A stretch of 61,955 nt of DNA, counting the filler, from Dimargaris cristalligena (lineage: Eukaryota): NCBI GenBank assembly GCA_003614675.1. It is 13 parts of 13 records of this genome, joined end to end, with 100 filler letters (N's around TTAATTAATTAA, not from the genome) between each part and the next. Parts side by side here need not be neighbours in the genome. Positions count along the whole stretch, not along the records: positions 19,244 to 23,918 come from ML003737.1; 12 more parts are not named here. One strand, 5' to 3'. This document shows, one piece after another, positions 4,746-57,456 of this stretch. The notes under the pieces were generated by a model. The model worked only from the letters and a program-made list of their open reading frames with translations. It was not told the DNA's origin and ran no database searches. The position numbers were made by a program, and so were the translations under genes. How positions within the stretch are numbered: position 1 is the first letter of the stretch; each line of letters starts with the position of its first letter.

Positions 4746-4845
4746 NNNNNNNNNNNNNNNNNNNNNNNNNNNNNNNNNNNNNNNNNNNNTTAATTAATTA
4801 ANNNNNNNNNNNNNNNNNNNNNNNNNNNNNNNNNNNNNNNNNNNN
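4746..4845. other. Artificial contig-joining spacer (N run / TTAATTAATTAA / N run). The same spacer occurs at 9566, 14358, 19144, 23919, 28688, 33452, 38211, 42968, 47718, 52467 and 57215
   Basis: Twelve identical 100-nt N blocks, each with a six-frame-stop linker; the segments between them decrease steadily in length. Confidence 0.98.
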
Positions 4846-8324: not shown

Positions 8325-9665
8325 GTTGGGCACGATGGTTGGTAATTGAAGTGGCTTTTGAGAAATGTAAATGAGTGGGGTTTGAATTGATTGCTGGATA
8401 TTGTGTGAAGGTTGAGAATGTGATTGATGTTGTAGAAAGCAGCGGAGAGATGGTCTTTTATAGCAAAAGCTAGGCCCCCCTAGTCTGCGCTCATTTCTAG
8501 TGGGCAAGTACTTTTAAGGGCAGTGCGATTAGGTAATAGGCACATTGTAGCCCTACTACAGACTACACTTTCCACCCGGATCCTCTAAAGACCGATGATT
8601 CCAATTCCATTCATTTTTTATTCGAGAATTCGATAGTAGAGCTATTATATAGTATAATGACATTCGTTATGGTCCTCAGCAAGGTTCGCTATTAACTGTG
8701 GAAAGAGTGGTTCAAAGATTCTAAGCGAAGCTGGCTTGCAAATACCACTTCTCGAAACATGTTCACCATTCGACCACATGTAGATAATGTTCGCTGTATT
8801 TGGATATTGGTGAACAGATAGTACACCCCCCCTTGCTAAAATAATATTACAGCTTAGTGACAAGTCCAGGTCTTTTAATGTGAGAACTGCAGGCCATATA
8901 AAAAGAACTTTGTAATTGTAAGTGAATACGTGTAGCTTTAGGCATTGTCATATTTCGATGATATACCGTATTATATTAGTTAACGTTAAGGGTCTGGTTC
9001 AATTTAGTCATGGACACTATTGGTTGCTACAGTTCTATTGTTCGCATTGCTTATGGGGGTGGTACCAATTAGCCGTCCCGCAGGATACAGTTGTTTGAAT
9101 TGATATCAATCAAATTAACTGGCTGCTGATTGGGCGGGGAACTAACTAAATGGCGTGTTTGCTTATTTCTACATTTACAGAAATGATACTGGGCTAAGAA
9201 TCAATCCCAGTTGGGACTAATGCATGCAGACTTTCTTAAAGACACTCACCATTAGTTAGTAATGACTGAGATGTATTCTAGATAGAATTCGTAAGCTAAT
9301 AAAATATATCAAAACAATAATAAGAGAGAAAAGCCGCAAAGAGATTCAGGAGAACCTCTTCACTTGGTTTTATTGAGTAATAACTGAATCGTTGATAATA
9401 GGATATAGATAAATTCAGATGAGTAAGATAATTATAAACGTGACCCCGGTTATGAGGTGTCCATTTTCTAACAGTATAATTATCATCATTTGGGTCTCGT
9501 ATTGAATGGCTGTGGCCTTTTACATACAATTTACTAGACCACTATTTTTATTTGAGCATGGGCATNNNNNNNNNNNNNNNNNNNNNNNNNNNNNNNNNNN
9601 NNNNNNNNNTTAATTAATTAANNNNNNNNNNNNNNNNNNNNNNNNNNNNNNNNNNNNNNNNNNNN

Positions 9666-16545: not shown

Positions 16546-18086
16546 ATGAAGTCGTATCTTAAGCCTATTACCCTCCTAGGCCTAATATTGCCCCGCTGTG
16601 CAGCCGGCTTCCCTCACCAGCCCGATGGTGTCGGCGAGAAAAGTGAGTGGGATAAATACGTCGATGCGGTTAATATCCCGCCTAACAGGGAACAAAATTA
16701 CAATACTTCCTCATTATTGTCCCTCCCTAATGAACTTAAGTTTTCTATCCTGGACTGTCTGCGATATAAAGATCGGGCAACCATGCTAAGCATTAGCAGG
16801 CATTCCAATGCAGTCGTTCAAAGTCACCGTGACAGTCAAGCTCTTCTTGATGTAGGTTTATTAGCCCCATTTTAAGCCACACCCTTATTACTAAGATACC
16901 CGGCCAGTCGTACTACATGCCGATGCCACTATTGGTATATTGGTCTATAGATCAGCCCGTAAGCGGTCGGTACTTTGGCGCGTTCTGCGAAATACTCCCT
17001 GCCCCTCTTTTTTAAAACTTTGCCATTAATTAATTCCTTTTCGTCACCGTATCTAATTTTGGACAATTATTTATTGTCACGCCTTCCCTTGCCCAATAGT
17101 TTATCAAAAATTCCCTACGCCCGATTTTGAACAGCAACTCGATCAGCCTGAAACAACTTCAAGCACTTATCCCAATGCAGCCCATGGATGCCATTATGGC
17201 ACACGCTTGGGACATTGAAGGTGGTCACCTGACCGAAAGGTCCGACTATCCGGACGATATGACCTATAGAAAAGACTCGTTCGATATAGAAACTCGCCCC
17301 AGCAATAATCGGAAGGTCGTTGAACAAGAGTGGGAGTACCTGGATTACAATCAACTAAGCAACAGACACAAGCGGGTCCTTTTTCCCTTGCTATATCACT
17401 TGTCAGACTTGCCCATACAAGACATTGCCCAGTTATACAAAGTGTTCGATGAACTGGTAGGCACCCAACCATCGGTCAGTGAGTTACAGCAACTGACCGA
17501 CGGCGACCCAATTCTCCAATCGTTTACCCAATATTTTTACCCAGAGGGCGTGGCTGAAATCTTCCAGACTTCATTTGCCCAACTCATGACCAGTGTCAAT
17601 GCGGTCCTCGCCACCTCTGACCAATTCGACAAGTTAAAGGAAACACTGAAAATCAGCGTTAGCCCCGATTTCTCGCCATCCACTACCGACTATCCAATAC
17701 TTTTGCGTTTGGAGTTTGGTAATGCAGACATCGATCTAGTCAATTTGATAAGTCTGATTCAAATCAACTGCGGTTATGCCAGTGCGCTGGGATTCGAGAC
17801 GGCAGCAAGGAACTGCTTAAATTACCCAAATCATCACCATGTAACCCCGTGGCTACTTTCAACGATGACAGCCGATGGGTTTGCGCATCCGCACCGAGAC
17901 TCCAAGGGCAGCCCCAGACTGGCTATTCGAGTCCCCCGTCGGTCTGTCGAAGCATTGCTCAAAGCAAAGGGGCTCAGTGTTGATAGACTCCCCTGGCTGG
18001 ATCACGAAGTTCTTTTAGACGAGCTGTACAAAATGAGATATCGACGTAGTCTTCCACTACCACGGCCCATTGCTAACCAGGAGTGA
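16546..18086 (+). CDS. Signal-peptide + F-box protein; exons 16546-16851 and 17100-18086 (~430 aa)
   Basis: MKSYLKPITLLGLILPRCAAG signal peptide; LLSLPNELKFSILDCLRYKDRATMLSISR fits the F-box consensus; GTAGGT donor at 16852, CTAAT branch site ~17053 and TAG acceptor ending 17099 join in phase 0 to ORF 17127-18086. Confidence 0.7.
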
Positions 18087-19243
18087 TTGTATCTCCGACT
18101 TTTTACGTATCTTTGAGATTCGCTTTGACTTTTTTATAATCAGTGGTTTTAATCCGTACTACTTTGTTTCCATTTAGTACCTATATATAGTGCTTCTCGC
18201 TATCAGCTCACCGGTGATATAAAATAGTAGGTCTACCATTTCGTCCTTTAACCCCACCTCCCTTTATCCCCGTTCTTGTTTTTCGCCAATATTTTTCGCA
18301 ATTATTAGGTCACGGCTTGGTGCTTTACAAGTCTATTTTATCTATTCCATAGGTTATAATAAGTATATTACCAGTATTTGACCATCACTCTAGCTTTTGT
18401 TGGAAATGGGTCAATTTTCAACTCTACCTTTGGGTATACATGTTAGCCACAATGAGAACAGTGGCTTTGGCCATTTTAGTTTTATAACTTAACTATAGTG
18501 GTTGGTATCTTCTAACCCAATCACCAATATTTTCTTGGGTATATTTAGAGGGGGTTGCCATCCGCGACTGTATCTGGGTAAATTGTTCGACTTTGACAGT
18601 TGATTATTGGTACCACTATGAGGGATATATGCTCACTGTGTCGCGGCGGTTAACCATACACATCCCGATTCAGAGTCCAGGTGGGTAGGTTGGGTAGGCA
18701 GCTCTTTGAAATAAGTTGATCACATTGTTACGATAGAGAGCTTGGGGAGGGATGTGCCATTGTTCATTTTGTATTCTTAATTCCTCCATAGGCCGATAGG
18801 GGTAGGATCTGTTTGCGGGCCCTCCAGTGATGTTTTTATTGGCGAGACCAGGTGACGCCCCGACTTTGGGTGGTTGGCCACGCCCGGTAGTTACCGTAAT
18901 TGTGGCCTTCCACGTCAACCAACCATGGCTTGGCGTATCAAGCTAATCTCTGCATAACTACGATAAAGTCACAGTGTAACTCTTTCCATCATTGGGGGAT
19001 CAGAATAGTCCTCCACCTGGGACTTATCTGCTATTTACCAGACAGAGGGGATTTTATCAACCAAGATGCTTGGTAATGTAGCAAATAGCATGCCTTTTAG
19101 CTGAGATTCTTTATTGGATATGATTATGAAACCTTGAAAGAAANNNNNNNNNNNNNNNNNNNNNNNNNNNNNNNNNNNNNNNNNNNNTTAATTAATTAAN
19201 NNNNNNNNNNNNNNNNNNNNNNNNNNNNNNNNNNNNNNNNNNN

Positions 19244-20970
19244 TGTAGAAGGCTCTGCTGGGAACTATAAGAGTTGTTAGATTAGCCTAGGAGTAATTAG
19301 TGTGAGCCTAGAGTCTGGAAAGAGAATAGTTATATAATATAAGATGATCCCATATTACTAGGGGTGACTATGGGAAGGTTAAATATAGTGCTAAAAGGCC
19401 TAATATAGTTGGTCTATCAATATGTCTGGATTAGGTTAGATTAGAAAGACTAATATTACCCTCTCTTACTATAGCCTCATCCTTAAGGCCTTTGATAAAT
19501 AGAATGATCTAGTTGCCAGATACTCATTCCTGCTGGAGGCATTTCTCATGAACTGAGGGGGTGATAGTATATATATTACTACCATAGATGCCTTCAATTA
19601 AAACAGGGCCCTTGAAGGGGGCTTGTAGGGACAGGGGCCTATGGGGGACCTGGACTAAGACTTGGTCTCTCATATGGTACTATATGGGATCTGTGGGTTT
19701 AGGGCCTAGCTTATAGCAAACTCACTGGTAAGCCTCACTGAGCCAGTTGCAGAGCTTATTGATATAGGCAGATCTGGTAAAGGCTCAGAGGGTGTTAATG
19801 TCAGCATTTAGGGCCACATCCATAGGCATACAGGGGTCTTAACTATACATCAGGTAAAATAGCTTGTTAACAATAAGTCAGATATAAGCCATGCAATAAG
19901 CAAATAGGTAAAGGGCTAAATGCTGGTCCCATTGTGGGTTGTCTCCAGAGGAGTATTTTATGATCATATGTTTGAGTATGCCATTGAGTTATTTAACTGC
20001 TCTATTTCTCTGGGGGTAGTAAGGGGTAGCCATCTCATGGTCTATCCCTGAGAGGCATAGGGTCTGCCTGTGGATACTCACTATAAATTATTTACCCTAG
20101 TTGGAGATCAGGATCTGGGGGCAGCTGTGGATACTGATTATATCTTTATTAAGGAATTGGATAATGGTTTGGGCTGTAATATTTAGGATAGTATGGGCAA
20201 AGGGCCAGTGGGTAAAATAGCCAATGGCAACTATAATAAACTTATTACCATTCTGTGGGTATTAAGCAGTCCAATTATGTTGATACCCAGGTGATCTAAT
20301 GGTCTGGTAAGGGGGGTAACTAACCATTCAGGGGGTTGGGGGGCCTATTAGTAGTACTGGTAGGTCTTACAACCTCATACATATTTATTTATATCCTTGT
20401 CCATTAAGGGCTAGTATACAGTCTATTGAAGATGGTGTAAAATGGTTTTGGTACCTAGATAGCTGGTACCAGGTCTGCTATGGGCAGTGACAATAGTTAC
20501 TACTCAGTGTACCTTAGGTAGGACAAGGTAGTTCTATCTGCCAGGACCTTGTTGTAATAGCAGCTGGTCTACTAGCACAAAGTTCTGGTTCTTACTATGG
20601 GATTTCTGGAATATATGGACTTCCATACAGTTACATAGTTCATTTACATCCAGGTCAGCTAGCTGATCCTAGAGCATCTGGCCTAGGGGGATGACAGTAG
20701 CCAGGACTATAGATAGGATATCAGTATAACTAAAGCCAGGAGTACTGTGTTCTGTCTTATCCAGGGTAGTAGTCTCCATCAATAGGGGAGCTTCAATTTA
20801 CTAGAAAACCAGCTATACTATGCAGTCCCTGGGGTAGAAGGAAAGTGTTTCAGCAGAGAGGCTGTATATTAGTACCTGGATTGTACCTTAGAAATTGGAA
20901 TCTATGACTCTGCTGCAGATGGCAATTTAACATAGCCCAAGGGAGCTGTGTTCCTTTATAAGGGCTACTA
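19244..20970 (-). mobile_element. Heavily mutated retroelement remnant: dUTPase (20719-20968), integrase (~19490-20520), probable PPT and 3' LTR fragment
   Basis: Manual minus-strand translation gives eroded dUTPase motifs 2-5, then AH..P...YLG and CKTYQ (HHCC remnant), HLGINIIG and LISN*G (DDE remnants) and PFKGP (GPY/F-like); AAGAGAGGG purine tract near 19459. Confidence 0.8.
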
Positions 20971-21411
20971 TGTTACCAACAATTTGAGGGACTCTGCTGG
21001 CATGCCTTTGGGAGAGTTGGCAGGAGGGGGAACCTCTGGTTTCTTTCCACTAGATAGCTTATCATATTTTGTCATGTAATGCAGAATGTTGGGCTTTGTT
21101 GGGTTTATTGAAGAATAAGTTCCTATGTGTTCTTTATTCTATCCTATTTTTACCAAATTACATTAGTTTATTCTGCTATCATGAGATCATTCATGTTAGC
21201 CAGTTATATTTCACTCTACAGAAATTACAACTCAATAAAACTAACCACCTAGAGGTACCTACCGTCCTCTAGCTGCTTTCTTCCCTTACTTCCAGTTTTA
21301 TTATTTTATAAGCCTTAGTATTCCAACAGATAATTCCTGTAAGCCATCCCACCACAGGTCAAGTTCCATATTAAAACAGCCATTCACAATGGCTCTATTT
21401 CCCTGGTGACA
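20971..21411 (+). repeat. 5' LTR of the plus-strand Ty3/Gypsy element
   Basis: TGTTACCA...TGGTGACA inverted termini; internal AATAAA; followed by a TGG-initiated PBS-like sequence (TGGCATC) at 21413. Confidence 0.7.
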
Positions 21412-21519
21412 GTGGCATCAATCAGCTACTATGCACTGCAATATTTGGATATTGCATCACTAATGACACCACAGAGGAGTATGTCTACTCCCTCTCCCTT
21501 CAAGAAGACTTGGTGCAGT

Positions 21520-22081
21520 TGTCGCCCGGGTTAACCACTCTTAGTCCGTCAAGAGTCTTGGGGGTAGGCTTCTAACGGTAGGCGGGGCATTGGACACGGC
21601 CAAGTGGGCTACTAGCATTAGGTACGGCAGCAATACTAACTAGATAAGGGAAGCACAAGATGTAGGTGAGGTCCGTGCACTAAATGCACACTTACTAGTC
21701 AGTATGAGGGGTGAGCGTATATAGAGTTTATGGGGAGTAAACCATTGGGGGTAAGAATAAGCTGGGGTGCTAACCGGACCCAAAGGGGGCCCAGTTATAT
21801 ATACGCGGGGGACAACTCCAAAGGGGAGGTCCTGAAGGGGGAACTACTTAATGCTAACAATAAGGTGGACCAGCTGGTCCTCGGCTGGGCGGGCTTCCAT
21901 GGGAATTGGAAGGCACTAAGATCACCTGTGAGTGATTAGTGTGAACTCCGGGAGGCCCGGCCAGTAGGGGGATATCAATGATGCTTGGCCTTATTAGGGC
22001 CGGGGGTATAATATGGCATTATACGGCCTGGTATGACAGCAGTCATATTGTTGGGATTAGGACAGATTAGGAGGGGCAACA
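21520..22081 (-). mobile_element. Solo LTR, family A (562 bp), with 5-bp TSD
   Basis: TGTCGCC...GGCAACA termini; flanks GCAGT and GTAGT; TATA-like box on the minus strand; homologous copies elsewhere in the window. Confidence 0.85.
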
Positions 22082-23918
22082 GTAGTAACCACAAGTCTAG
22101 TTCATACTCCACCCAGGAGTGCTGAGGTCTGGCTAGATGTCCAAACAACTCTCAGGCGAGATCACTGAGTTCACCCAACAAGCCAGTAACCCCCAGTCCA
22201 GTGGTCACATGTTTCAAGTGTCAGATGCAACACCACTATGCACCGAGTTGTCCCAAGAAGAACACCCCCAAGACACCACACACCCCAGCTACCAACATTC
22301 AAGGTATGCAAGTGGTTAATGAAGTCGGCTCTATTGAGGAGAACTAGATCATTGAGATGCCTATTATTGTCTGAGATATTTAAACTTTTGGTTTCTTGGA
22401 TACTGGTACCTCAAAGTCTATTATTCTTGAGGCCTTCTGCCATGAACATTATATCCCGGTTACACCTGCAACTGGTGTTATCCAGGGTTTCACCATGGCC
22501 ATGACTCAACCCCAAATTGGTATTACGGGCCCCATCAAGGTTAAATGTAGCTCACATACTGCTAGTGTTTCATTTGAAGCTCTCCAGGACTTTAAAGGAT
22601 CTTCCATTATTATTGGGAGAGATAGCTTTCAATACTTAGGTATCAACATCACCGGTCTTCCCCACACTTATCCAGCAACACATCCTTAGATTATGGATGA
22701 GGTAACCCCACTTATTTCCCCCAATAAACTCCAGACCCGGCCATTTGGTGATAAGCACATCAACTATATGAGAGCCAAGGAGTCTATCCTAGCTAACCTA
22801 CAAGAACTCCTTGACAAGAATGAGGCTATCAGTCCTCATGAGCCCTATCCAATTCCCGAGGCTGAGATTAGTCTTCCTACACCACCAGGATAGGCAATAT
22901 ATAGATGTCAGTATCTGATTCCACACAAGCTCCAGCCCAAGGTGAACAAGCTGATTAACCAGTGGCTCACTGACAGTATCATTAGGATTGCACCTATTGA
23001 CTGTGCATTCAATACTCCTATGTTCATCATCCCCAAAAAGGATGCCTAAGGCAATCTCACTGACATCCAACCATACCATGACTACCAGCTACTGAACCAG
23101 ATGCTCCCTGATGATTCCTTTCCCCTGCCCCTCATTGCAGATATTTTCAACTCTTTATCTAGGGCAGCCTACTTCTCCACTCTTGATCTCAAGTCAGCCT
23201 ACCACTGGTTCCTGATTGTCCCAGCCAACCAGCACAAGACTGCTTTCACCTGGAATGGTATCCAGTATGACTTCCACTGAGCCCTGTTTGGCCTCAAGAG
23301 CCTCCTGTCCAAGTTCCAGAAAGTGATCCAATGGCTTTTGCATGATTTACCCTTTGCTATTCCATTTATGGATGACATTATGGTGTTTTCACTGACCCCT
23401 GAAGACCACTAAGACCACCTATTGCAAGTACTCGAGAAACTCAATGAGGCATGGCTCATTCTCAATAGGCCCAAGTGTCACTTTATCAAGACTGAGATCA
23501 AGCTCCTAGGCTTTTGAATCAATGTGCAAGGCATGCATGTTAACCCTGGCAAGATCAGTATTATCAGGGACTGGCCCACTCCAACAACCACCAAACAGCT
23601 CCAGCATTATTTGGGTTTCTTCAACTACTTCAGGCAACACATACCCATGGTTTCCAAGCTCACAGCTCCACTTGATGCCCTGCAAACCAGTGACAACCTC
23701 AAGGCAGTTTGGACCCCGGAATATAGTACCATTTTTGAGCAGTTCAAGGCCATCTTGTATTTGGCCCCTTCACTGACCTTTCCTGACTTTTCAAAGCCCT
23801 TCTGCATTGCCACAGATGCATCTAATAAAGGCATTGGTGCTGTCTTGTACTAAACAGCTGATGGTGACCCCAACTCCACAGACATCAAGTTCAATTCCTT
23901 TCCAGCAAGAAGTCTCAC
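22082..23918 (+). pseudogene. Ty3/Gypsy pol pseudogene (protease, RT, RNase H), truncated by contig end
   Basis: LDTGTS protease motif; FPLPLI, FSTLDLKSAY, KTAF and FMDD RT motifs; FCIATDASNKGIGAVL RNase H motif; many transition-type stops. Confidence 0.9.
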
Positions 23919-24315
23919 NNNNNNNNNNNNNNNNNNNNNNNNNNNNNNNNNNNNNNNNNNNNTTAATTAATTAANNNNNNNNNNNNNNNNNNNNNNNNNN
24001 NNNNNNNNNNNNNNNNNNAGGCATAGAGAAGCATGCATTTTCTGACTATTGTAAACAAACATTGCAAATGAATAAAGCTACTACTAGTATATATATATTG
24101 AGCTTGAAGCAGCATGCTTCTATTATGTATGTGGCACGGCCTTCATTAAGAAGTGTACGCAGCTTGCTTGCTTGCATGGCGGCATGACGATGGTTAATGT
24201 GTGATCGCAATCGCCGTCACTAATCGCCCTTCCTCGCTCCCTCTCCCTCTCTATCTCTCGCTCTGTGTTTATTGTTACCTCACTAATCTAGCTTGCTGCT
24301 TCCTACGCCACTACC

Positions 24316-27300
24316 ATGTCGCCGTCATCTTCCGACGATTATAGGCAGCAGCAACCACCTCATCCGCCGGCTGTTGGCGGCAGTGGTCATGGTGCCAGTC
24401 AGGCGCTGTCGCCTCCGTCCGTCAAGTCGCCCGGTGTGGGCGGCAGCTTTCGCGGCAACCCGCGCCACTTGTCCGTGAACACGACAGCCTCGGCCGGCTC
24501 CACGTCCGCGGCGCTAAAGTCGCCGTCCCGCGAATTCACGCTGCTGTCCGATGCCGGCACGGAATTCGACTCGCTCGACCAGATGGGGCCGGCCATTCAG
24601 ACCATTTGCCAGACTGGCCGCGAGCAGGCGTTCATCAACGAGGTGGCCGGGTTCGTCGAGCGCAAGGAGGGAGAGATCGAACGGCTATGCAACACCCATT
24701 ATCAGGTAGCATGCCGTGTGGAAGCGGGCTGGCAGCATCGCAGTAACCACATGCATCGCCATGGATGATCTAGGATTTCATTAAGGCGGTGGAGGAGCTG
24801 CTGCTGGTGCGCCAAGGCACGGTGGCGCTGAAGGAGGACGTGCTGCGGCTGAATGGCGAGCTGCAAGTGTCGGGCGAGGACCTGGTGGCCAAGGTAGGAG
24901 ACGAGCTATGAGGATGCTACTCGTGTGCGTGCGCGTGCGTGTGTGTGTATGGGTTGGCGCACGGATGATTGACCGACTGCTCATTGCATGACCGCGATGG
25001 CCGGTGTATTTAGCGCGCGAAGCTCTACGCGGCCCAGCGCATCCGGGAGAATCTACAGCTGGGCATTGACCAGTTGCAGCGGTGTCTGCATGTGCTCAAG
25101 CTCGCCAACAAGGTGCGCATCCAGCTTGAGCATCGCAACTACTACACGGGCCTACGGGTAAGCGGGCGGCGACAGACGGCGATGTGCGCGAGAATGACGC
25201 ATGTTGTCCGCGGCGATGATCACCATCGTAGACGCTCGAAGAGTTGGAGGATGTCCATCTGCGAAAGGTGGCCAAATACGAGTTTGCCAAGCATATGGGT
25301 GGGTGGGATGCCGCGGTATCTGGCGCATGGCATTCAATGGCCATGAATGTAATTAGAGAAATGGATCCCCTTGATGAAGGAGAACATCAAGAGCTCGGTT
25401 ATGTCTGATTTGAAGGAGTGGCTGTTCAAGTAAGCGGGGCGCAGCTGCAATGGACGCATATATGGGAATGGCCATGCTTACACGGGCTGCACGGCGTGGT
25501 CGATAGCCTACGCGAGCAGTCGCGCATGGTCGGACAGCTGGCCATGCGGGAGGCGAACGAGCTGCAGGCGAAATCGCCCAAGGGCGAGAATGTCGACACG
25601 GCATTGGAGCTGGTGCTGGACGAGGAGAATGGACGTAGGTTGGCAGGCAGCGTGCCGATCGCCATGGAACGACTAACGAAGAGACGGGCAGTGGATCTGC
25701 TGGAGGACAACCGGGTCACGATTGATTTCAAGCCGCTCTATCAGTGCATCCATATCTACGAGAAGCTGGGCCGTAAGAATGAGTTCAAGAAGCACTACGA
25801 GGAGGATCGACAGGTGAGAGGCGGGAGGGAGAGGGAATGGCATGGCTGTCCATGGATGACGAGCCATGCACGGATGCATGTAGGCCCAGGTGGATCTGAT
25901 TCTCAAGGCCAAGATCGACACGACGCCCGAGGGCAAGAAGGCGCTGGGCGACATGCTACAAGAGATAGTGGGATTCTTTATTGTGGAGCACCGTGTCGCC
26001 TACACCACGCGCGAGTTCCGATCGAAAGCACGGGTAGGCAGCGAGAGGTGATGTGGGGGGAGCGCGGCACTCGGGCTTACCGGGTGGATGTGCGCATGGC
26101 GCGCGGCAGGTGGAGGTGCTGTGGACCATGGTGGCCGAGCGCATCACACGTGCGATATCCGACACCATCCGGCAGTGCTCCGATATCGACGCGCTAAGCG
26201 AGGTGAAGCAGTCGACGATGCTGTTCGTGCCGGCGTTGGAGGTAAGTGCGCGCGTTTGGCCCATGGACATGTGAGGCTGACGGGCAGGGATGTGGCTGTA
26301 TGCGGTAGCGGTACATGTTTGACACGCGGAAGCCGCGCGAGTTGACGCAGATCCTTATCGAGCGATGCGCCGCCCTGACACTTCTGACCTGTGGCACGCA
26401 GTTTAAAGAAGTAGGTGCATATCGTTTACGATTGTGGTTGCTAACATGTATGTATGTATGTGCATATAGCGCGCGGCCGACAAGGGATTCCAGCCTATGA
26501 CGATCCATGACGAGAAGGAGTACAAGGTGCTGCGCGGGCTGTACAAGTTCCCCGAGGAGCCCGATGCGCGCAAGCAAGGGCAAGTGTGCAGCCTATCGAG
26601 CTGTCATCGTCATCGCGCGCCATGTCATGCTTATGCGATGCTCGATGGATCGTAGATTCCCGCGTGCACTTCCGTTCGGCAGTGTCATTCCGCTTATTTG
26701 CGCGGACATCAAGCGCGGTGTCGATCAGTTCTATGGCTTTGCCGTGAACGAAGCGGGCCAGCCTGTGGTGCCGCAGGTCGATACGATCGTCCAGAATGTA
26801 GGCCATCGCATTGCTAGGACAATCACGAGATGCACAAGCTTACGCGATGACGCGCGCGTGTAGGCGGTGGACGCACTGCTGGGCAGAACGGTGCCCGACG
26901 TGCTGCGAGGCGAGCTCAAGTCCACCTCGATGCTGCAGGTGGTCCAGCTAAACGCGAACATCGAGCATTTCGATCATGTTTGCGGCGAGTTCGAGAAGTT
27001 CCTCACCGATCGCCGGCAAGTGCCATTGAACAGTGATGATCGCGGCAGTAGCAGCAGCATGTGTGCGCGCTAACCCATGCATGCAACAAATAGTGTCGTC
27101 CGATCGTCCAACGAGGACAAGATCAAGCTGAAGGCGCGCGATGCCTTCGACGATGTTAGGAAGCAGGCGGAGAAGCGCATCTTTGAGCTTATCAACGGCA
27201 AGCTGGACGCCTTCCTCGCCGCATCCGACTATGACTGGCAAGTATCGAGCTGTGCTGCTGGTATTCCGCGAGCCTGCATGCTCATACTGTGCATTAGGAT

Positions 27301-27972
27301 GCCCAAGAAGCCACGTGCACAGCCGGCCAACTACCTGACCGGTAATGCTGTCCGTCCACCATGTCCGTCTGGCCCGTGCTCATAGCCTGTCTGCTTGTAG
27401 AGCTCGTCAGCTATCTAAAGGAGATGTTCACCACGGCGCTCGTCCATCTGCCGGTCAATATCAAGTCGCTCGTGACATTCGAGGCGATGGACCATTTGGC
27501 GACATCGATGAATGTAGGCGCACACACATACACATGCATTCATCCTACTAATCACGGATACCTACTTAGGAGCTGCTTCTGGGATCGAAGGTCAAGAAGT
27601 TCAATAGCAACTTTGTCGCCAACATGGACGTCGATGTGTCGTTCCTCGAACGGTTCCTCGAGGAGCTGGGCGATCCCATGATGCTCGATATATTCGTCGA
27701 GTTGCGACAGGTAGCTCGTCGACCATGCATGCGAGGCAGCCAGGGCTAACGAGGCTGTTGCCAGGTGATCACCCTACTGCTATCGAACAACCAGGAGGAG
27801 TATCTCGACATGCAGATACGCAATCGCAAGTACTCCCGTCTCAAGCCGGCCATGGTGATGGCACTATTTGAAAAGTAAGGATCCACCATCGGCCAGTACA
27901 TCCATCATGAGCACGACTGACCATCATCATCATCATCATCCTTCCTGTTCCATGCGTAGATTCCGGCCATAA
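24316..27972 (+). CDS. SEC15: Exocyst subunit Sec15/EXOC6; about 19 exons
   Basis: Spliced model gives EIERLCNTHYQ|DFIKAVEELL, MSDLKEWL, IDFKPLYQCIHIYEKLG, EIVGFFIVE, FPRALPF, AEKRIFELINGKLDAFL, FVELRQ; the splice sites I traced keep the frame. Confidence 0.92.
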
Positions 27973-28120
27973 TAATACTAGCAACACAATGCAAATAAAC
28001 AACAGTTTCTTCTTCCATTGACCACTAATGCTGCATAATTACTGTATCTTTTATTTCCAGTCATATCATATCTACTAGTCCGCATACATATGAAGGGCAC
28101 GTCTCTCTCCCCCCCCCTCT

Positions 28121-28643
28121 CTAGGCCTGAATGCCCGTCTCCAATGCTGCTATGAGCGGGGCCATCTTCTCGCCTCGGATAAAGTAGAGACGGCGTGCCG
28201 GGGCGATTCCCGTCTCCTGGAAGGTCCGTAGGGCATCGGCAACTGGTGGCGGCTTACGGAACCCGAAATCGCACTTGATATCCGCGAACTAGACCATCGA
28301 GCGCATCGTGTCCAGACAGTGTTGGTTATGTACGCCAGTGCACAGTCGAGTAAGCTGCCCATGCGCCTACCTGATCGATAATCTCGTCCTCCAAATGATA
28401 GTGGAAGATGGCCGGCTCGCTTGCCTAATGCGCGTGCACATAGAGTAACATGTCATAGCATGGTCAGCGTGGTTATTGTCGCAGCTGGCATAGGATGGCT
28501 GTGGCACATGCAACACACACCTTATTCTTCTTCTTCTTTCCTTGCACAACGGGCGCATCGGGCATGTCGTCATCGGCCACCGGTGCCACTTCGCGATACG
28601 TCTTCGACAGCAGCACATACCATGCAAACTGATAGGGTTCATT
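28121..28643 (-). CDS. BCP1: BCP1/BCCIP family protein, 3' exons (28521-28643, 28371-28424, 28121-28288); 5' truncated
   Basis: Phase-0 GT-AG spliced translation NEPYQFAWYVLLSKTYRE...KKKKNK|ASEPAIFHYHLEDEIIDQ|FA...GIAPARRLYFI matches the BCP1 C-terminal motifs (LSKTY, FHxEDE). Confidence 0.75.
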
Positions 28644-28892
28644 CTAGCGAGGGGTGCCCATCAGCGTTAGTCAGTCGCATGCCGCGTNNNNNNNNNNNNN
28701 NNNNNNNNNNNNNNNNNNNNNNNNNNNNNNNTTAATTAATTAANNNNNNNNNNNNNNNNNNNNNNNNNNNNNNNNNNNNNNNNNNNNTAAATCAAGGGTC
28801 TAGGTTATTCAGGGGCGACGGAAAGTAGTAGCTGGTCTTGATGCCATTGTTGGAATAACCACCGGTGGTCCTGGGTCACTTAATGTTGTTGG

Positions 28893-29129
28893 CTAGGAAC
28901 GTTGGGGACGTTGGTGGCGTTGCTGGTTTTGATTGAGTTCCGAATGAGTTTGTTCTAATAAACTCGGTGGCTTGGCTACTGGGGAGGTCATGGGAACATT
29001 CGGTACCGGCGGGTTGGGGATTCTTGCAGGACGACTGGGGAAATCACCAGACCGGTCCTGAGGACGTCCTGGTGACCTGGGCCTGGAAATAGGTGCCGCC
29101 GAAGTTTGTGGTTCTTGGGGAGGCGGCAC
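28893..29129 (-). CDS. Short Pro-rich ORF of unknown function
   Basis: GC-rich, Pro/Gln-rich 78-aa ORF with a non-ATG start near a contig edge; possibly an exon. Confidence 0.25.
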   Translation of the reverse strand: MPPPQEPQTSAAPISRPRSPGRPQDRSGDFPSRPARIPNPPVPNVPMTSPVAKPPSLLEQTHSELNQNQQRHQRPQRS

Positions 29130-30678
29130 AACAATTAGGAAATCAAAGGAGTTTTACCTATTATATTAATAGTTTACATCAGAATGTATACTAGAATTTA
29201 TCTACTTATTTTTTAGTTAGCTTTTTACTTATATGCCATATATTTCTAAAAAAAAATCGAGCCCCTAGTATATTGGGCCATAGTAATGATTCATCAACAG
29301 TGTGCTTTATTTTATAACGGCCCCATCCTCTAAATGGATATCCGTGCGTAACATCAATACTTGGCAACCGGCTTACAGTATTATATAGCTACAAGTGTGC
29401 AAAAACTATGAATTAGTACCGTCCTAAACCGTTAATTTTGCAAATATAATTTAATTTGGAATCAATTTTAGCGGACAGTTGCCGGAAGTGAATCGTTATT
29501 AATAATTGAATTCACTTTAGAGAAGTTTCTACTACTGTGGCTGGGACCGTACCAAGGTGCTCATGCCTTCAACTGTAGTGACAAGTCGATACTCGTACCA
29601 ATATGTATACTAGATGAATTAGCCAGTTACGATCGCGTGCTTCTGGTTGCTAAAGTGGCATTACAACTTGGATTGTCTTGGGATAGTCTACGGCGATATT
29701 GGATGTCTTATACCCATCCCCATTTGTTGAAGCCCGGTATTTTAAACTGGCACCTTTAACGTTTTCATGGTCTTCTAATAATTTGATATCGGTATCACCA
29801 CCCTTAATAATCCTCTAGCTGTATTATTCTGGCTAATTAGCCGCACCACCGGTAGCCCCCCACCCATTTCCTTATACCCACCAAAATGTACTAGGTATTC
29901 AGCCCCCATCTTTTTCTTTGTGGTATGACAAAAGCCCGTGTTTACATCCGATAGTGCAATCCTTCTTTCGAGGGTAAAAGACGGGAGCGGCTAAGGACAG
30001 TTGAGATTCTCCTGGTATTTAAATTCTCCAAGTAAAATTGGTGAATAAGGGTTGTCGAATAAATTTGAACGTATTGTCCTTAGGTAGTCGAAGCATAAAC
30101 ATATTTGCATAGAATAGTTCATAATAGTAGGTGGTCTTATACAAGGCCGTTATATAGTCAGTAATTTGGGTCTATTTTCATCGACAGCGAACTCGAGCCG
30201 CAGTGGGTTAGGATAGGGACCTCTTCATCCATATCACGTGACCTGTTCACTATATTTCAGAATTGAGGCAGTCTTCTAATTAATAGTGAAAAAAAAAAGA
30301 ATATTTCGATCTGGCTGACTAAACCAGTGAAGCCAACGGACAATTCAAAGCTAATTTACCACCACCATTTGTAAAAGACGGCGGAAAATAATTACACATA
30401 GGAGGGGGGTGGGTTTTATAAAACCACAGTCAATGAACTATATACCCCCCAGTCTGGCCCGCAGACCATACCAAAGTGCCCTTTCTTCTTCCCCCCAAAT
30501 TGTTTCTCGGTCCCTAATCAACCTTCCATTGGTTATTTCGAGTCCAGTTGTATTTGTGTATTTTTTTTAATAGTATCTTGCATGGTCCTTCGTTTACCAA
30601 GCGCACTCTATCATACCTGCCCTATAATAGGCCCCATCCCCTACTTTTCCAGCTCGAGTAAATCGTACAAAAGTCGAC

Positions 30679-32534
30679 ATGGAGTATCGGCCCGAACAGA
30701 CCACGCAGCTCATGTAAGTACTAGCCATCTCGAATTAATATCAGTCGACCCGAATACCCCCGCAGTACTACTCCGCCATCAATGTATTGTGTTTGACATA
30801 CTCCGAGTATTTGCCGTCGGGTGTAATAACAAGGGGGCTTAATTTCTCCTTTCGAACATATCGTCTACTCGATAGGCCCCGGCTTAGTCAGCCTCCTTAC
30901 TGAATGTATCTCAAACCACATCCCTATATACATACGCAATCTGCCACTATCATAACATACCCCCTGCCCTTCCATACCCTGCTGTATATAGCCTGTGCTG
31001 CTCTTGCGGTACGGCGATTCCGCCGAACCCGGCGAATATGTGTGAGACCTGTATTCGCAGCGAAGTGGACATTACCGAGGGCATCCCCAAACAAGCCACG
31101 ATTCATTTCTGCCGTAACTGCGAACGCTACCTCCAGCCGCCCACCCAATGGATTCCCTGTGTGCTCGAATCGCGGGAACTGTTGACCTTGTGTATCAAAA
31201 AACTCAAGGGCCTCAACAAGGTTCGCCTGATTGACGCGGGGTTCATCTGGACCGAGCCCCATTCTCGGCGTATCAAGGTTAAACTCACGATCCAGAAGGA
31301 GGTCTTCGCCAACACGATCCTGCAGCAGATGTTCCAGGTCGAGTATGTCGTGGCCTACCAGCAGTGCGAAGACTGTACCCGGGTCATGGCCCAGAATACC
31401 TGGAAGGCCATGGTGCAATTGCGTCAGAAGGTGCCCCACAAGCGTACGTTCCTGTACCTCGAACAGCTCATTCTGAAGCACAGCGCCCATAAGGATACCA
31501 CCAACGTCAAGGAACGCCGGGACGGTCTGGATTTCTATTACGCCAGCCGGAGTCACGCCGTGAAGATGCTGGACTTTTTGCAGGCCGTGGTGCCCGTGCG
31601 CTCCAAGTCGTCGGAACAGCTCATTTCCACGGATATCCACAACAACACGTCCAACTACAAGTTCACTTACTCGGTGGAAATTGCCCCCATTTGTAAAGAC
31701 GACCTGGTGTGCCTGGCCCCGAAAATGGCGCAGTCCCTGAGTAATATCAACCCCCTGTGTCTGTGCTACCGGGTGGGTAACAGTGTGAACCTCATTGACC
31801 CCCACACCCTAACCATGGCCGAAGTCCAGAGTGGTCTGTACTGGCGGAACCCCTTCTCGGCCATTCTGGCCACCAAGGACCTGGTGGAATATTACGTGTT
31901 CGATGTGGAGCCCCTCGGCGTCTCCCGCGGCCGCTTCACCCTCGCTGACGTGACCCTGGCCCGCACGTCCGATTTTGGCAAGAACGACACGTCCTTCTTT
32001 GCCCGGTCCCACCTGGGCGGGATCCTCAAACCCGGGGACACCTGTCTGGGCTACGATTTGGCCACCACCAACGTCAACGATACCAACTTTGACCGTCTGG
32101 ACGCCGGCCGTATCCCCGATGTGGTCATTGTCAAGAAATCCTACCCCAACCGCCGTAAGAAGAGTCGTACCCGTCACTGGCGACTCAAGACCCTCACCAA
32201 GGAAGAGGAGGACGTGCTACCCCGTAAGCAAGATCAGGAGAAGATTGAACAGGACTACGAACTGTTCCTGCGTGATTTGGAAGAAGACCCCGAATTCCGT
32301 GCCACTATCAACCTGTACAAGGCCGACGAGAACGCTACTAACACTGCTGCCCCAGCGGCTGCCCCCGGTCGGTCGGTTACCTTTATGGAACAGGATGATA
32401 CGGCTATGGCTCAGGATAGCGACGATGTTGGTGAAGAGGAAGAGGAGGACTTCCCCGAAATTGCCCTGGAAGAACTCATGAACGAACTGAACATCGAAGA
32501 GGACGAGGAGGTTCCAAGTGTGATGCCCGAATAA
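30679..32534 (+). CDS. NMD3: 60S ribosomal export adaptor Nmd3; exons 30679-30713 and 30992-32534
   Basis: Spliced start MEYRPEQTTQLILCCSCGTAIPPNPANMC; FIWTEPHSRRIKVKLTIQKE; QLRQKVPHKRTFLYLEQLILKH; acidic tail; GTAAGT/TAG phase-2 intron. Confidence 0.97.
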
Positions 32535-33082
32535 GCCCCTCCCCCCTTCTAGGTTTGGTTGCGCATAAATACATAGTTATATCCTTTGAACTCGTTCTTT
32601 AGCAATCATCGTTATTTTCCAGACACATTTGTGTTTTTATTTCTTCGGCAATTCAGCTCTGCATTCAAAAATTTACCTAATACATTCGCTATAAAATCGT
32701 TACCGATAGGTCTAAAGAATTTGCTATGATTGCAAAACAGCGAATTACCATTAAGATATAATTATTTACTCAAGCCGAGTTGAACTTGCACATAAGGATA
32801 CAATATTATTAAAACGCTACGATAGATTTGGTCAAGCATATGTTGCAGTACTGTGTAACTCTATATTAATGGCATTTGGCATAGAGAGCTGCGAGATATA
32901 AGAATGCTTTATTGTTGAAAAATAAAAATACCGATAAGAATAATGCTGATTTAACAGCTATTACCATATAGGTTGACAGAATAAGGACAAGTAAAGCACA
33001 ATATAGGTGGATTAATGATGGGCGAGACCTGCTATCAGCCGCTGATATTATCCATGGTATAGTGGATGGGACAGCAAATCCG

Positions 33083-56906: not shown

Positions 56907-57456
56907 TAAATTTGCGGCTGTATTGGCCACTTATTCTCATGTTTCATCGATTCCTTCAGTAATTTTGCCTGACTTTAAACGCTCAGATATATGGATGTAT
57001 TTAGATTGTTACTTTTATGAAGATCCTCCTGACACTTATTCGGCACTATTATATAGGTATTAATAAATAATAATACAAAATGTAACTATTCATGTTGCCT
57101 GAATTAACCACTCTTAGTCCATCAAGAGTCTCAGGGATAGGCTTCTAATGGTAGGTGGGGCATTGGGCACGGCCAAGCGGGCTACTAGTGTTAGGGGTGG
57201 TGACAGGACTAACCNNNNNNNNNNNNNNNNNNNNNNNNNNNNNNNNNNNNNNNNNNNNTTAATTAATTAANNNNNNNNNNNNNNNNNNNNNNNNNNNNNN
57301 NNNNNNNNNNNNNNTATCTTTTCAAATAAAGTTCAGTTTTCAAGGATTTGATTTCAGTTCTTTACAGAGTGCAACTAATAAACTATCTGGTGACTATAGT
57401 AATTGGTCTGGCTTTTTATACCTAAGCAGACTAAAAACTGGATATGGAATCAACAG

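Follow-up and report, generated by a model that had tools for sequence, protein, structure and literature searches.

A decayed dUTPase-integrase relic in the Dimargaris cristalligena assembly and the probable RNase H-dUTPase-integrase order of its Gypsy family

We analysed a stretch of 61,955 nucleotides from the genome assembly of the fungus Dimargaris cristalligena (GCA_003614675.1), hereafter the window, where the minus strand of positions 19244-20970 holds a hidden dUTPase directly upstream of the remains of an integrase. The window consists of 13 contigs of 4.64-4.75 kb in descending size, spliced by N44-TTAATTAATTAA-N44 linkers (4746-4845, 9566-9665 and so on to 57215-57314), and any feature that seems to end at a linker or to span it is an artefact of the joining. 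The dUTPase-integrase relic is confined to the contig piece 19244-23918. It should be noted that 19244 is a contig end, and that the stop of the integrase side there is not biological. The fragment is best explained as the 3' part of a dead long terminal repeat (LTR) retrotransposon of Ty3/Gypsy type, which would belong to D. cristalligena or a very close relative. As judged from its relatives, the family very probably has the dUTPase between RNase H and integrase, as in the non-primate lentiviruses.

The dUTPase remnant (20723..20968, minus strand) comprises the C-terminal 82 residues of a trimeric-type enzyme with motifs 2-5 and 5 stops. With stop codons read as X, as in all Pfam scans of the relic, it matched PF00692 with an E-value (E) of 5.1e-8 and 33.2 bits (cut-off 22), residues 3-82 corresponding to positions 49-128 of the 129 in the profile. 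The N-terminal ~48 profile positions are missing, and motif 1 is cut off at 20970. When the relic was searched against the PDB sequences the top matches were dUTPases (E 1.7e-4), and the dUTPase of feline immunodeficiency virus (FIV; 1f7d) was found among the matches at E 0.027. The dUTPase is followed by a linker and the region that Gypsy elements usually have before the integrase zinc finger (20489..20722, minus strand), which is conserved in other Dimargaris copies, and then, in the dUTPase frame, by the integrase zinc-binding domain H2C2 (20354..20488, minus strand). In the reading from 20968 the latter occupies residues 161-205, and it was detected with PF17921 at 26.8 bits (cut-off 25.5, E 5.8e-6).

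The integrase core and C-terminal region (19479..20261, minus strand) are decayed, with 11 stops in frame residues 237-515, and were recognised by the rve profile and by two Gypsy Pol proteins, P0011 and P0015. Residues 909-1029 of P0011 and 1239-1385 of P0015 align to the core at 28-29% identity, and tblastn of the relic against the two proteins gave E 9e-21 and 2e-16, respectively. P0011, a Gypsy Pol without dUTPase, also aligns with its residues 759-905 to 20668-20258. Its match switches frame from 20258 to 20249, which indicates a one-base frameshift at approximately 20250..20258 (minus strand), on the boundary of zinc finger and core. With E values up to 1 allowed, none of the frames of 19244-20970 matched Chromo. 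The fragment showed no env or accessory genes, and tblastn of the dUTPase-frame peptide at E 1e-3 revealed no second copy elsewhere in the window.

An earlier reading of this DNA, made from the sequence alone and here called the sequence-only reading, had proposed the hidden dUTPase and given a peptide for the minus strand from 20968. Our translation agrees with that peptide, and the dUTPase is borne out by a stop-tolerant profile match above the cut-off. The motifs it named (RSS, GVIDSDFRG, GDRIAQL and RGxxGFG) can be restored codon by codon by reversing C>T and G>A changes only. It had also described a continuation into integrase free of frameshifts, which holds up to the zinc finger and is broken by the one frameshift before the core.

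The decay of the relic is extensive. There are 13 stops per 235 codons in the frame from 20968, and the fragment 19244-20970 has zero CpG in 1727 bases and an observed to expected ratio of 1.39 for TpA. Motifs 2-5 are mutated and, in addition, interrupted or flanked by the 5 stops of the dUTPase, and the catalytic motif set is not intact. This copy is certainly non-functional, a dead relic with no functional weight of its own. Against P0003, a partial protein of the same species, the relic shows 38 identities in 82 residues (46%), rising to 72% if decay-compatible mismatches are scored as matches. C>T/G>A changes can account for 21 of the 44 mismatches and the opposite changes for 2 (shuffles 16 +/- 5%), and every stop in the relic faces Q, R, H or E in P0003. 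This pattern of substitutions points to the relic as a decayed version of a P0003-like sequence.

Past the integrase, on the minus strand, lies a purine-rich run (19456..19470), which by its sequence and its position relative to the LTR homology is a probable polypurine tract. It is followed by the start of a 3' LTR (19244..19455, minus strand), cut by the contig end and of the same family as a repeat at 21520-22081. The LTR was assigned by alignment and by depth in Logan contigs of four sequencing runs from two studies, matched at 80% likeness. Both read on the minus strand, 19444-19259 and the start of the 21520-22087 unit can be aligned with 113/162 identical positions and a score of 51 (shuffles 24 +/- 3.7, maximum 38), and the run depth in bin 19244-19399 is 17,000-33,000. 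Further copies of this LTR family are present in contigs 11 and 12. With integrase, probable polypurine tract and the start of a 3' LTR in succession, the relic would end as an LTR retrotransposon should; its own 5' LTR is not on the contig.

To collect relatives of the relic, we queried 1.84 billion representatives with its read-through of 235 residues in HMMER (filter only) and obtained 42 matches. Four of the five best (P0001, P0002, P0003 and P0005; 46-56% identity) are partial NCBI proteins, all from D. cristalligena, while P0010, with cystatin repeats, is a chance match to the linker. P0003 (185 residues) opens with the C-terminal motif of the Gypsy RNase H domain. This tail aligns to P0011 706-729 (E 5e-5) and P0015 1025-1048 (E 2e-5), at the points where their RT_RNaseH matches end, and 35 residues later a complete dUTPase begins (60-185, E 1.3e-30, 106.3 bits, profile 3-128). 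P0002 and P0001 extend from the C-terminal end of the dUTPase via the linker to the pre-integrase region, and they align with the relic throughout, over 20489..20722 at 46% and 55% identity. Chained together, these sequences give the order RNase H tail, 35 residues, dUTPase (~126 residues), ~79 residues, zinc finger and core. As the gap from RNase H tail to zinc finger is 86-99 residues in the dUTPase-less Gypsy Pol proteins P0011 and P0015, the dUTPase appears as an insert of ~150 residues at the RNase H/integrase junction.

From these alignments we consider it very probable that the order of the family is RNase H-dUTPase-integrase, the lentivirus-like arrangement that the sequence-only reading had suggested. 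In P0003 an RNase H tail is followed by a full dUTPase, and RNase H thus lies upstream of the dUTPase and not between dUTPase and integrase. All four runs contain contigs of 1.3-1.7 kb that match the integrase (19421-20246) at ~80-83% identity and extend ~870 bases past 20246; these would be expected to include the complete dUTPase of sister copies.

Some observations weigh against the proposed order. RNase H, dUTPase and integrase do not occur together on any one Dimargaris sequence; the order is chained from P0003 and the relic. These two, with 46% identity over 82 residues, possibly represent different subfamilies. Neither reverse transcriptase (RT) nor the body of RNase H is seen for the family of the relic, and P0003 is a gene model in which a predicted intron is possible. 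On the integrase side, rve stays under the Pfam cut-off (E 8e-4, 20.1 bits vs 32.6, residues 237-319) and is matched only in the frame from 20969.

If P0003 and the relic were from different families altogether, the domain upstream of the dUTPase in the relic's family could be another one, for example protease or Gag. Such a separation would fit the modest identity of the 82 shared residues and the lack of overlap beyond the dUTPase, as well as the finding that a single integrase clade includes different dUTPase positions (see below). However, relic and P0003 are sisters in the dUTPase tree, with a support of 90 in the Shimodaira-Hasegawa-like approximate likelihood ratio test (SH-aLRT), and their mismatches are skewed to C>T/G>A decay by 21 vs 2. 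Moreover, P0005 and P0002 of the same species bridge the two at 52% and 46% identity, and the four closest library proteins are all from D. cristalligena. We find separate families very improbable.

The upstream side of the relic is cut within the dUTPase by a high-copy repeat with a TG start and zero CpG (20971..21519, plus strand). Run depth and joints suggest that this repeat is most likely the 5' LTR of a nested plus-strand Gypsy element, and the sequence-only reading, which had placed an LTR at 20971, was most likely right on this point. A run joint at 20969 corresponds to the repeat end. The junction 20970/20971 is bridged by independent contigs of 3/4 runs, covering two studies, with 0-3 differences, and hence it is genuine, not an assembly error in this record. 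Depth per bin amounts to ~190-1,400 in the dUTPase-integrase interior and 190-1,100 in the dUTPase, versus 7,000-200,000 over 20960-22051, the rise in the bin after 20970 being ~20-fold or more. No second LTR of the plus-strand element was found on the contig, and blastn of 20960-21530 gave no other copy in the window. The N-terminal half of the dUTPase was sought in six frames of 20900-23918, and none was found there.

The interior of the plus-strand Gypsy element (22088..23918, plus strand) holds a gag zinc knuckle, protease, RT and the start of RNase H before it is cut by the contig end. RVP was matched at E 0.002 (18.8 bits, cut-off 20.7 not reached), RVT_1 at E 1.2e-16 and RT_RNaseH_2 at E 1.8e-11, and these matches share the frame from 20902. 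Between the repeat and this interior lies the unit at 21520..22081 (minus strand), 562 bases long with TG...CA ends. It is the exact span of homology with three other contigs, with 75% identity to contig 11; it is skipped by a joint 21518>22087 in 4/4 runs; and it is flanked by GCAGT/GTAGT, a 5-base repeat one C>T apart. Joint, homology span, ends and flanks together identify it as a solo LTR inside the plus-strand element; this solo LTR and the relic's 3' LTR belong to one family. The joint further implies that 20971-21519 is contiguous with the interior of the plus-strand element in other copies. Among the matches listed for 3 runs, 42-50 contigs per run have loose ends at 21520. Altogether three layers are nested here, namely the relic, the plus-strand Gypsy element and the solo LTR.

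Two other assignments of these repeats were tried and rejected. A single LTR running from 20971 to the plus-strand gag was dropped, 21520-22081 being a separate solo LTR, and the solo LTR as the 5' LTR of the relic was ruled out by the 21518-22087 joint in 4/4 runs together with its own 5-base flanking repeat. The solo LTR family is very abundant, with depth up to ~150,000, and the insertion adjoins the TGGTGCAG stretch of the nested element. The two ends of contig 12 (52466-53760 and 56021-57315) complement each other at 99% over 1295 bases, a count that includes linker letters; this reflects either a palindromic contig or an assembly artefact.

As no RT is seen on the fragment, the sequence-only reading had allowed for a Ginger-like element with integrase but no RT. 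Such an element would be a cut-and-paste transposon with a Gypsy-like integrase that carries a dUTPase. We judge this to be extremely improbable. P0003 has an RNase H tail, and the region from dUTPase to zinc finger aligns to a Gypsy Pol that has RT-RNase H upstream (P0011 759-905). After the integrase there follow the purine run and the start of the 562-base TG...CA repeat, and the solo copy of that repeat has a 5-base flanking duplication.

Another dUTPase-bearing Gypsy element is found in contig 9 (39146..42967, minus strand). It is nearly intact, and Pfam reads its Pol in one frame, with 2 stops per 1274 codons, as protease (PR, 79-165), dUTPase (234-361, E 2.5e-28), RVT_1 (473-630), RNase H (695-823), H2C2 (938-993) and rve (1005-1103). 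Like the relic family it belongs to Gypsy, occurs in the same assembly, carries a trimeric-type dUTPase and is CpG-poor. In contrast to the order proposed for the relic family, PR and RT flank the dUTPase here, and integrase comes straight after the RNase H tail. The two are 29% identical in the dUTPase (vs P0003) and 27% in the integrase core. The segment 39224-42337 of this element retains 83 CpG in 3114 bases, and the family may be young or recently active.

With a PR-dUTPase-RT element present in the window, and with a relic that is old and rearranged, one may ask if the family of the relic had the usual order PR-dUTPase-RT-RNase H-integrase and if RT-RNase H was lost in the relic by an in-frame internal deletion. 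This is contradicted by P0003, where the RNase H tail stands directly upstream of the family dUTPase. A deletion private to the relic is also unlikely because P0002 and P0001 share the run from the dUTPase through the linker to the pre-integrase region, and by the identities given above the contig 9 element represents a different family. We therefore regard loss by deletion as very improbable, and a dUTPase residing between RNase H and integrase in the family as the better account of the relic.

To see how common this order is, we compared other dUTPase-bearing elements. Among 17 such Gypsy Pol proteins the dUTPase is upstream of RT in 13 (after PR where present), upstream of PR in 1, after integrase in 3 and between RNase H and integrase in 0. 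We then scanned 12 further proteins that a profile of the Dimargaris family had picked up. In five of these (P0216, P0225, P0204, P0167 and P0211) RNase H or RT is followed by dUTPase, or dUTPase by integrase; four have the dUTPase upstream of RT, two after integrase, and the last is P0164 of a newt. The order RT-dUTPase(-rve) is seen in P0084 and P0070. P0348 combines RVT_1 (398-569), RNase H (639-776), dUTPase (874-1000), H2C2 (1195-1252) and rve (1274-1365) in one open reading frame, and P0349 has the same succession of RT, RNase H, dUTPase, zinc finger and core, also in one open reading frame. The order RNase H-dUTPase-integrase is not unique to Dimargaris, as it also occurs in ENA proteins. 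The ENA proteins P0348/P0216, P0225+P0204, P0349/P0211, P0084 and P0363/P0070 share the placement proposed for the relic family, but none is close to the Dimargaris family and their dUTPases are scattered in the tree.

Some further arrangements were met in these searches. The newt protein P0164 (Lissotriton helveticus, NCBI) has a protease-like N-terminus, dUTPase at 160-287, integrase at 359-529 and a Gypsy-type RT at 822-980, and this PR-dUTPase-integrase-RT order may reflect a genuine lineage with integrase before RT, or else an artefact of gene-model merging. Many environmental polyproteins of Copia type (RVT_2) carry a dUTPase, e.g. P0068, P0072, P0112, P0114, P0118 and P0127, and in P0114 it lies between a Pol beta-barrel domain and the integrase core. 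In the dUTPase tree, four dUTPases of Copia type group together with good support (97).

PMC2864245 reports three positions of the dUTPase in fungal Gypsy elements, namely the N-terminal end of Pol, its C-terminal end and the interval from PR to RT, and independent acquisitions are proposed there. The sequence-only reading had located it between protease and RT in fungal elements, which is one of these positions; the two ends of Pol have to be added. For LTR retrotransposons of rotifers (PMC5408684) and planarians (PMC6431247) the PR-RT position is reported. The elements PosPlaTy3-3, -4 and -5 of Postia placenta, those of Phanerochaete and Tmt1 of Tuber are fungal Ty3/Gypsy elements with a dUTPase in Pol like the relic. 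The PosPlaTy3 and Tmt1 elements are chromoviruses with a chromodomain and other dUTPase positions, in contrast to the relic, which gave no Chromo match, and to the RNase H/integrase position proposed for its family. The hosts of PosPlaTy3, Phanerochaete and Tmt1 elements are basidiomycete or ascomycete, whereas the host of the relic is a zoopagomycote. We found no report of a dUTPase between RNase H and integrase in an LTR retrotransposon in the open-access literature, subscription papers and Repbase lying outside the search. Fungal Gypsy elements with a dUTPase in variable position were already known; as far as searched, the placement and the host lineage are new.

The dUTPase tree (66 rows, 128 columns, quick method) is poorly resolved. 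In it the sister pair of relic and P0003 adjoins a Logan protein, near bacterial-type rows and away from both the contig 9 copy and the bulk of eukaryotic and retroelement rows. The nearest full-length matches of P0003 are 44-51% identical dUTPases that either lack an organism name or are named as bacterial, and the tree's five named fungal dUTPases all lie away from the Dimargaris domain. The eight database proteins with the order RNase H-dUTPase-integrase, the relic apart, need 6 changes on this tree. The approximately unbiased (AU) test did not reject a clade of relic, P0003 and contig 9 copy (p 0.555), the constrained tree being 5.0 log units better, probably through mutual attraction of two decayed long rows; nor did it reject a clade of all nine RNase H-dUTPase-integrase rows (p 0.162).

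For the integrase we used a tree of 28 rows and 341 columns. The nearest integrases to the relic are ordinary Gypsy Pol proteins carrying PF17917, PF17919 and PF17921. P0204 falls inside a clade (support 100) together with 11 PR-dUTPase-RT and 2 C-terminal types, and P0349, P0363 and P0084 form a separate clade (support 100). The relic integrase, a long and compositionally odd row, lies outside both of them, including the chromodomain-bearing one, beside a dUTPase-less protein (support 82). Clearly, the position of the dUTPase is labile among Gypsy lineages. The nearest tree neighbour of the relic integrase, at weak support (82), is P0036, a Logan protein of 2389 residues in which a superfamily-1 helicase (AAA_11/AAA_12) is fused upstream of Gypsy PR-RT-RNase H-integrase.

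The sequence-only reading had suggested an independent capture of the dUTPase, to be judged by trees that include the contig 9 element. The separate position of the relic in the dUTPase tree speaks for such a capture, but that tree is poorly resolved and the AU test allows a single clade. It seems that an independent dUTPase insertion in Dimargaris is the simplest reading, plausible but unproven. Further, we speculate, with more doubt than confidence, that the RNase H/integrase junction might be a recurrent docking site for dUTPase, filled independently in Dimargaris Gypsy, in at least 3 environmental LTR lineages and in non-primate lentiviruses, and that the Dimargaris dUTPase possibly came from a non-fungal donor.

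The non-primate lentiviruses, i.e. FIV, equine infectious anaemia virus (EIAV), caprine arthritis encephalitis virus (CAEV) and visna virus, have a homotrimeric dUTPase of ~130 residues in pol between RNase H and integrase according to PMC4531489, in agreement with the placement that the sequence-only reading had ascribed to them. Lentiviral pol and the relic family, the latter as chained from P0003 and the relic, would share this dUTPase placement. The relic differs from lentiviruses in its PF17921 integrase domain, in its nearest integrases, which are those of Gypsy Pol, and in its fungal host, and its dUTPase is no closer to lentiviral than to cellular dUTPases. The relic family is thus of lentivirus-like design and not a member of Retroviridae.

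Taken together, we suggest that the Pol of this family would carry a trimeric-type dUTPase inserted ~35 residues past the end of RNase H and ~80 before the integrase zinc finger. The relic would have been cut inside its dUTPase by the insertion of the Gypsy element whose repeat starts at 20971, and after this insertion C>T decay would have removed all its CpG along with numerous further C and G bases. In intact copies the dUTPase may be made within Gag-Pol and trimerise in the particle, whether or not it is released by the protease. By analogy with the lentiviral dUTPases, its hydrolysis of dUTP might then leave less uracil in the reverse-transcribed complementary DNA (cDNA); for those enzymes, PMC4531489 documents a role in limiting uracil in cDNA in non-dividing cells.

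Few host-type enzymes have been acquired repeatedly by retroviruses and LTR retrotransposons, and the dUTPase is among them; its expression and processing depend on its position in Pol. On the order proposed here, Gypsy families with the lentiviral placement and with the PR-RT placement would coexist in one fungal genome. The Dimargaris family and the further lineages would mean that lentiviruses are not alone in having it between RNase H and integrase, and they may offer a comparison set for why retroelements need a dUTPase and how Pol tolerates a trimerising insert.

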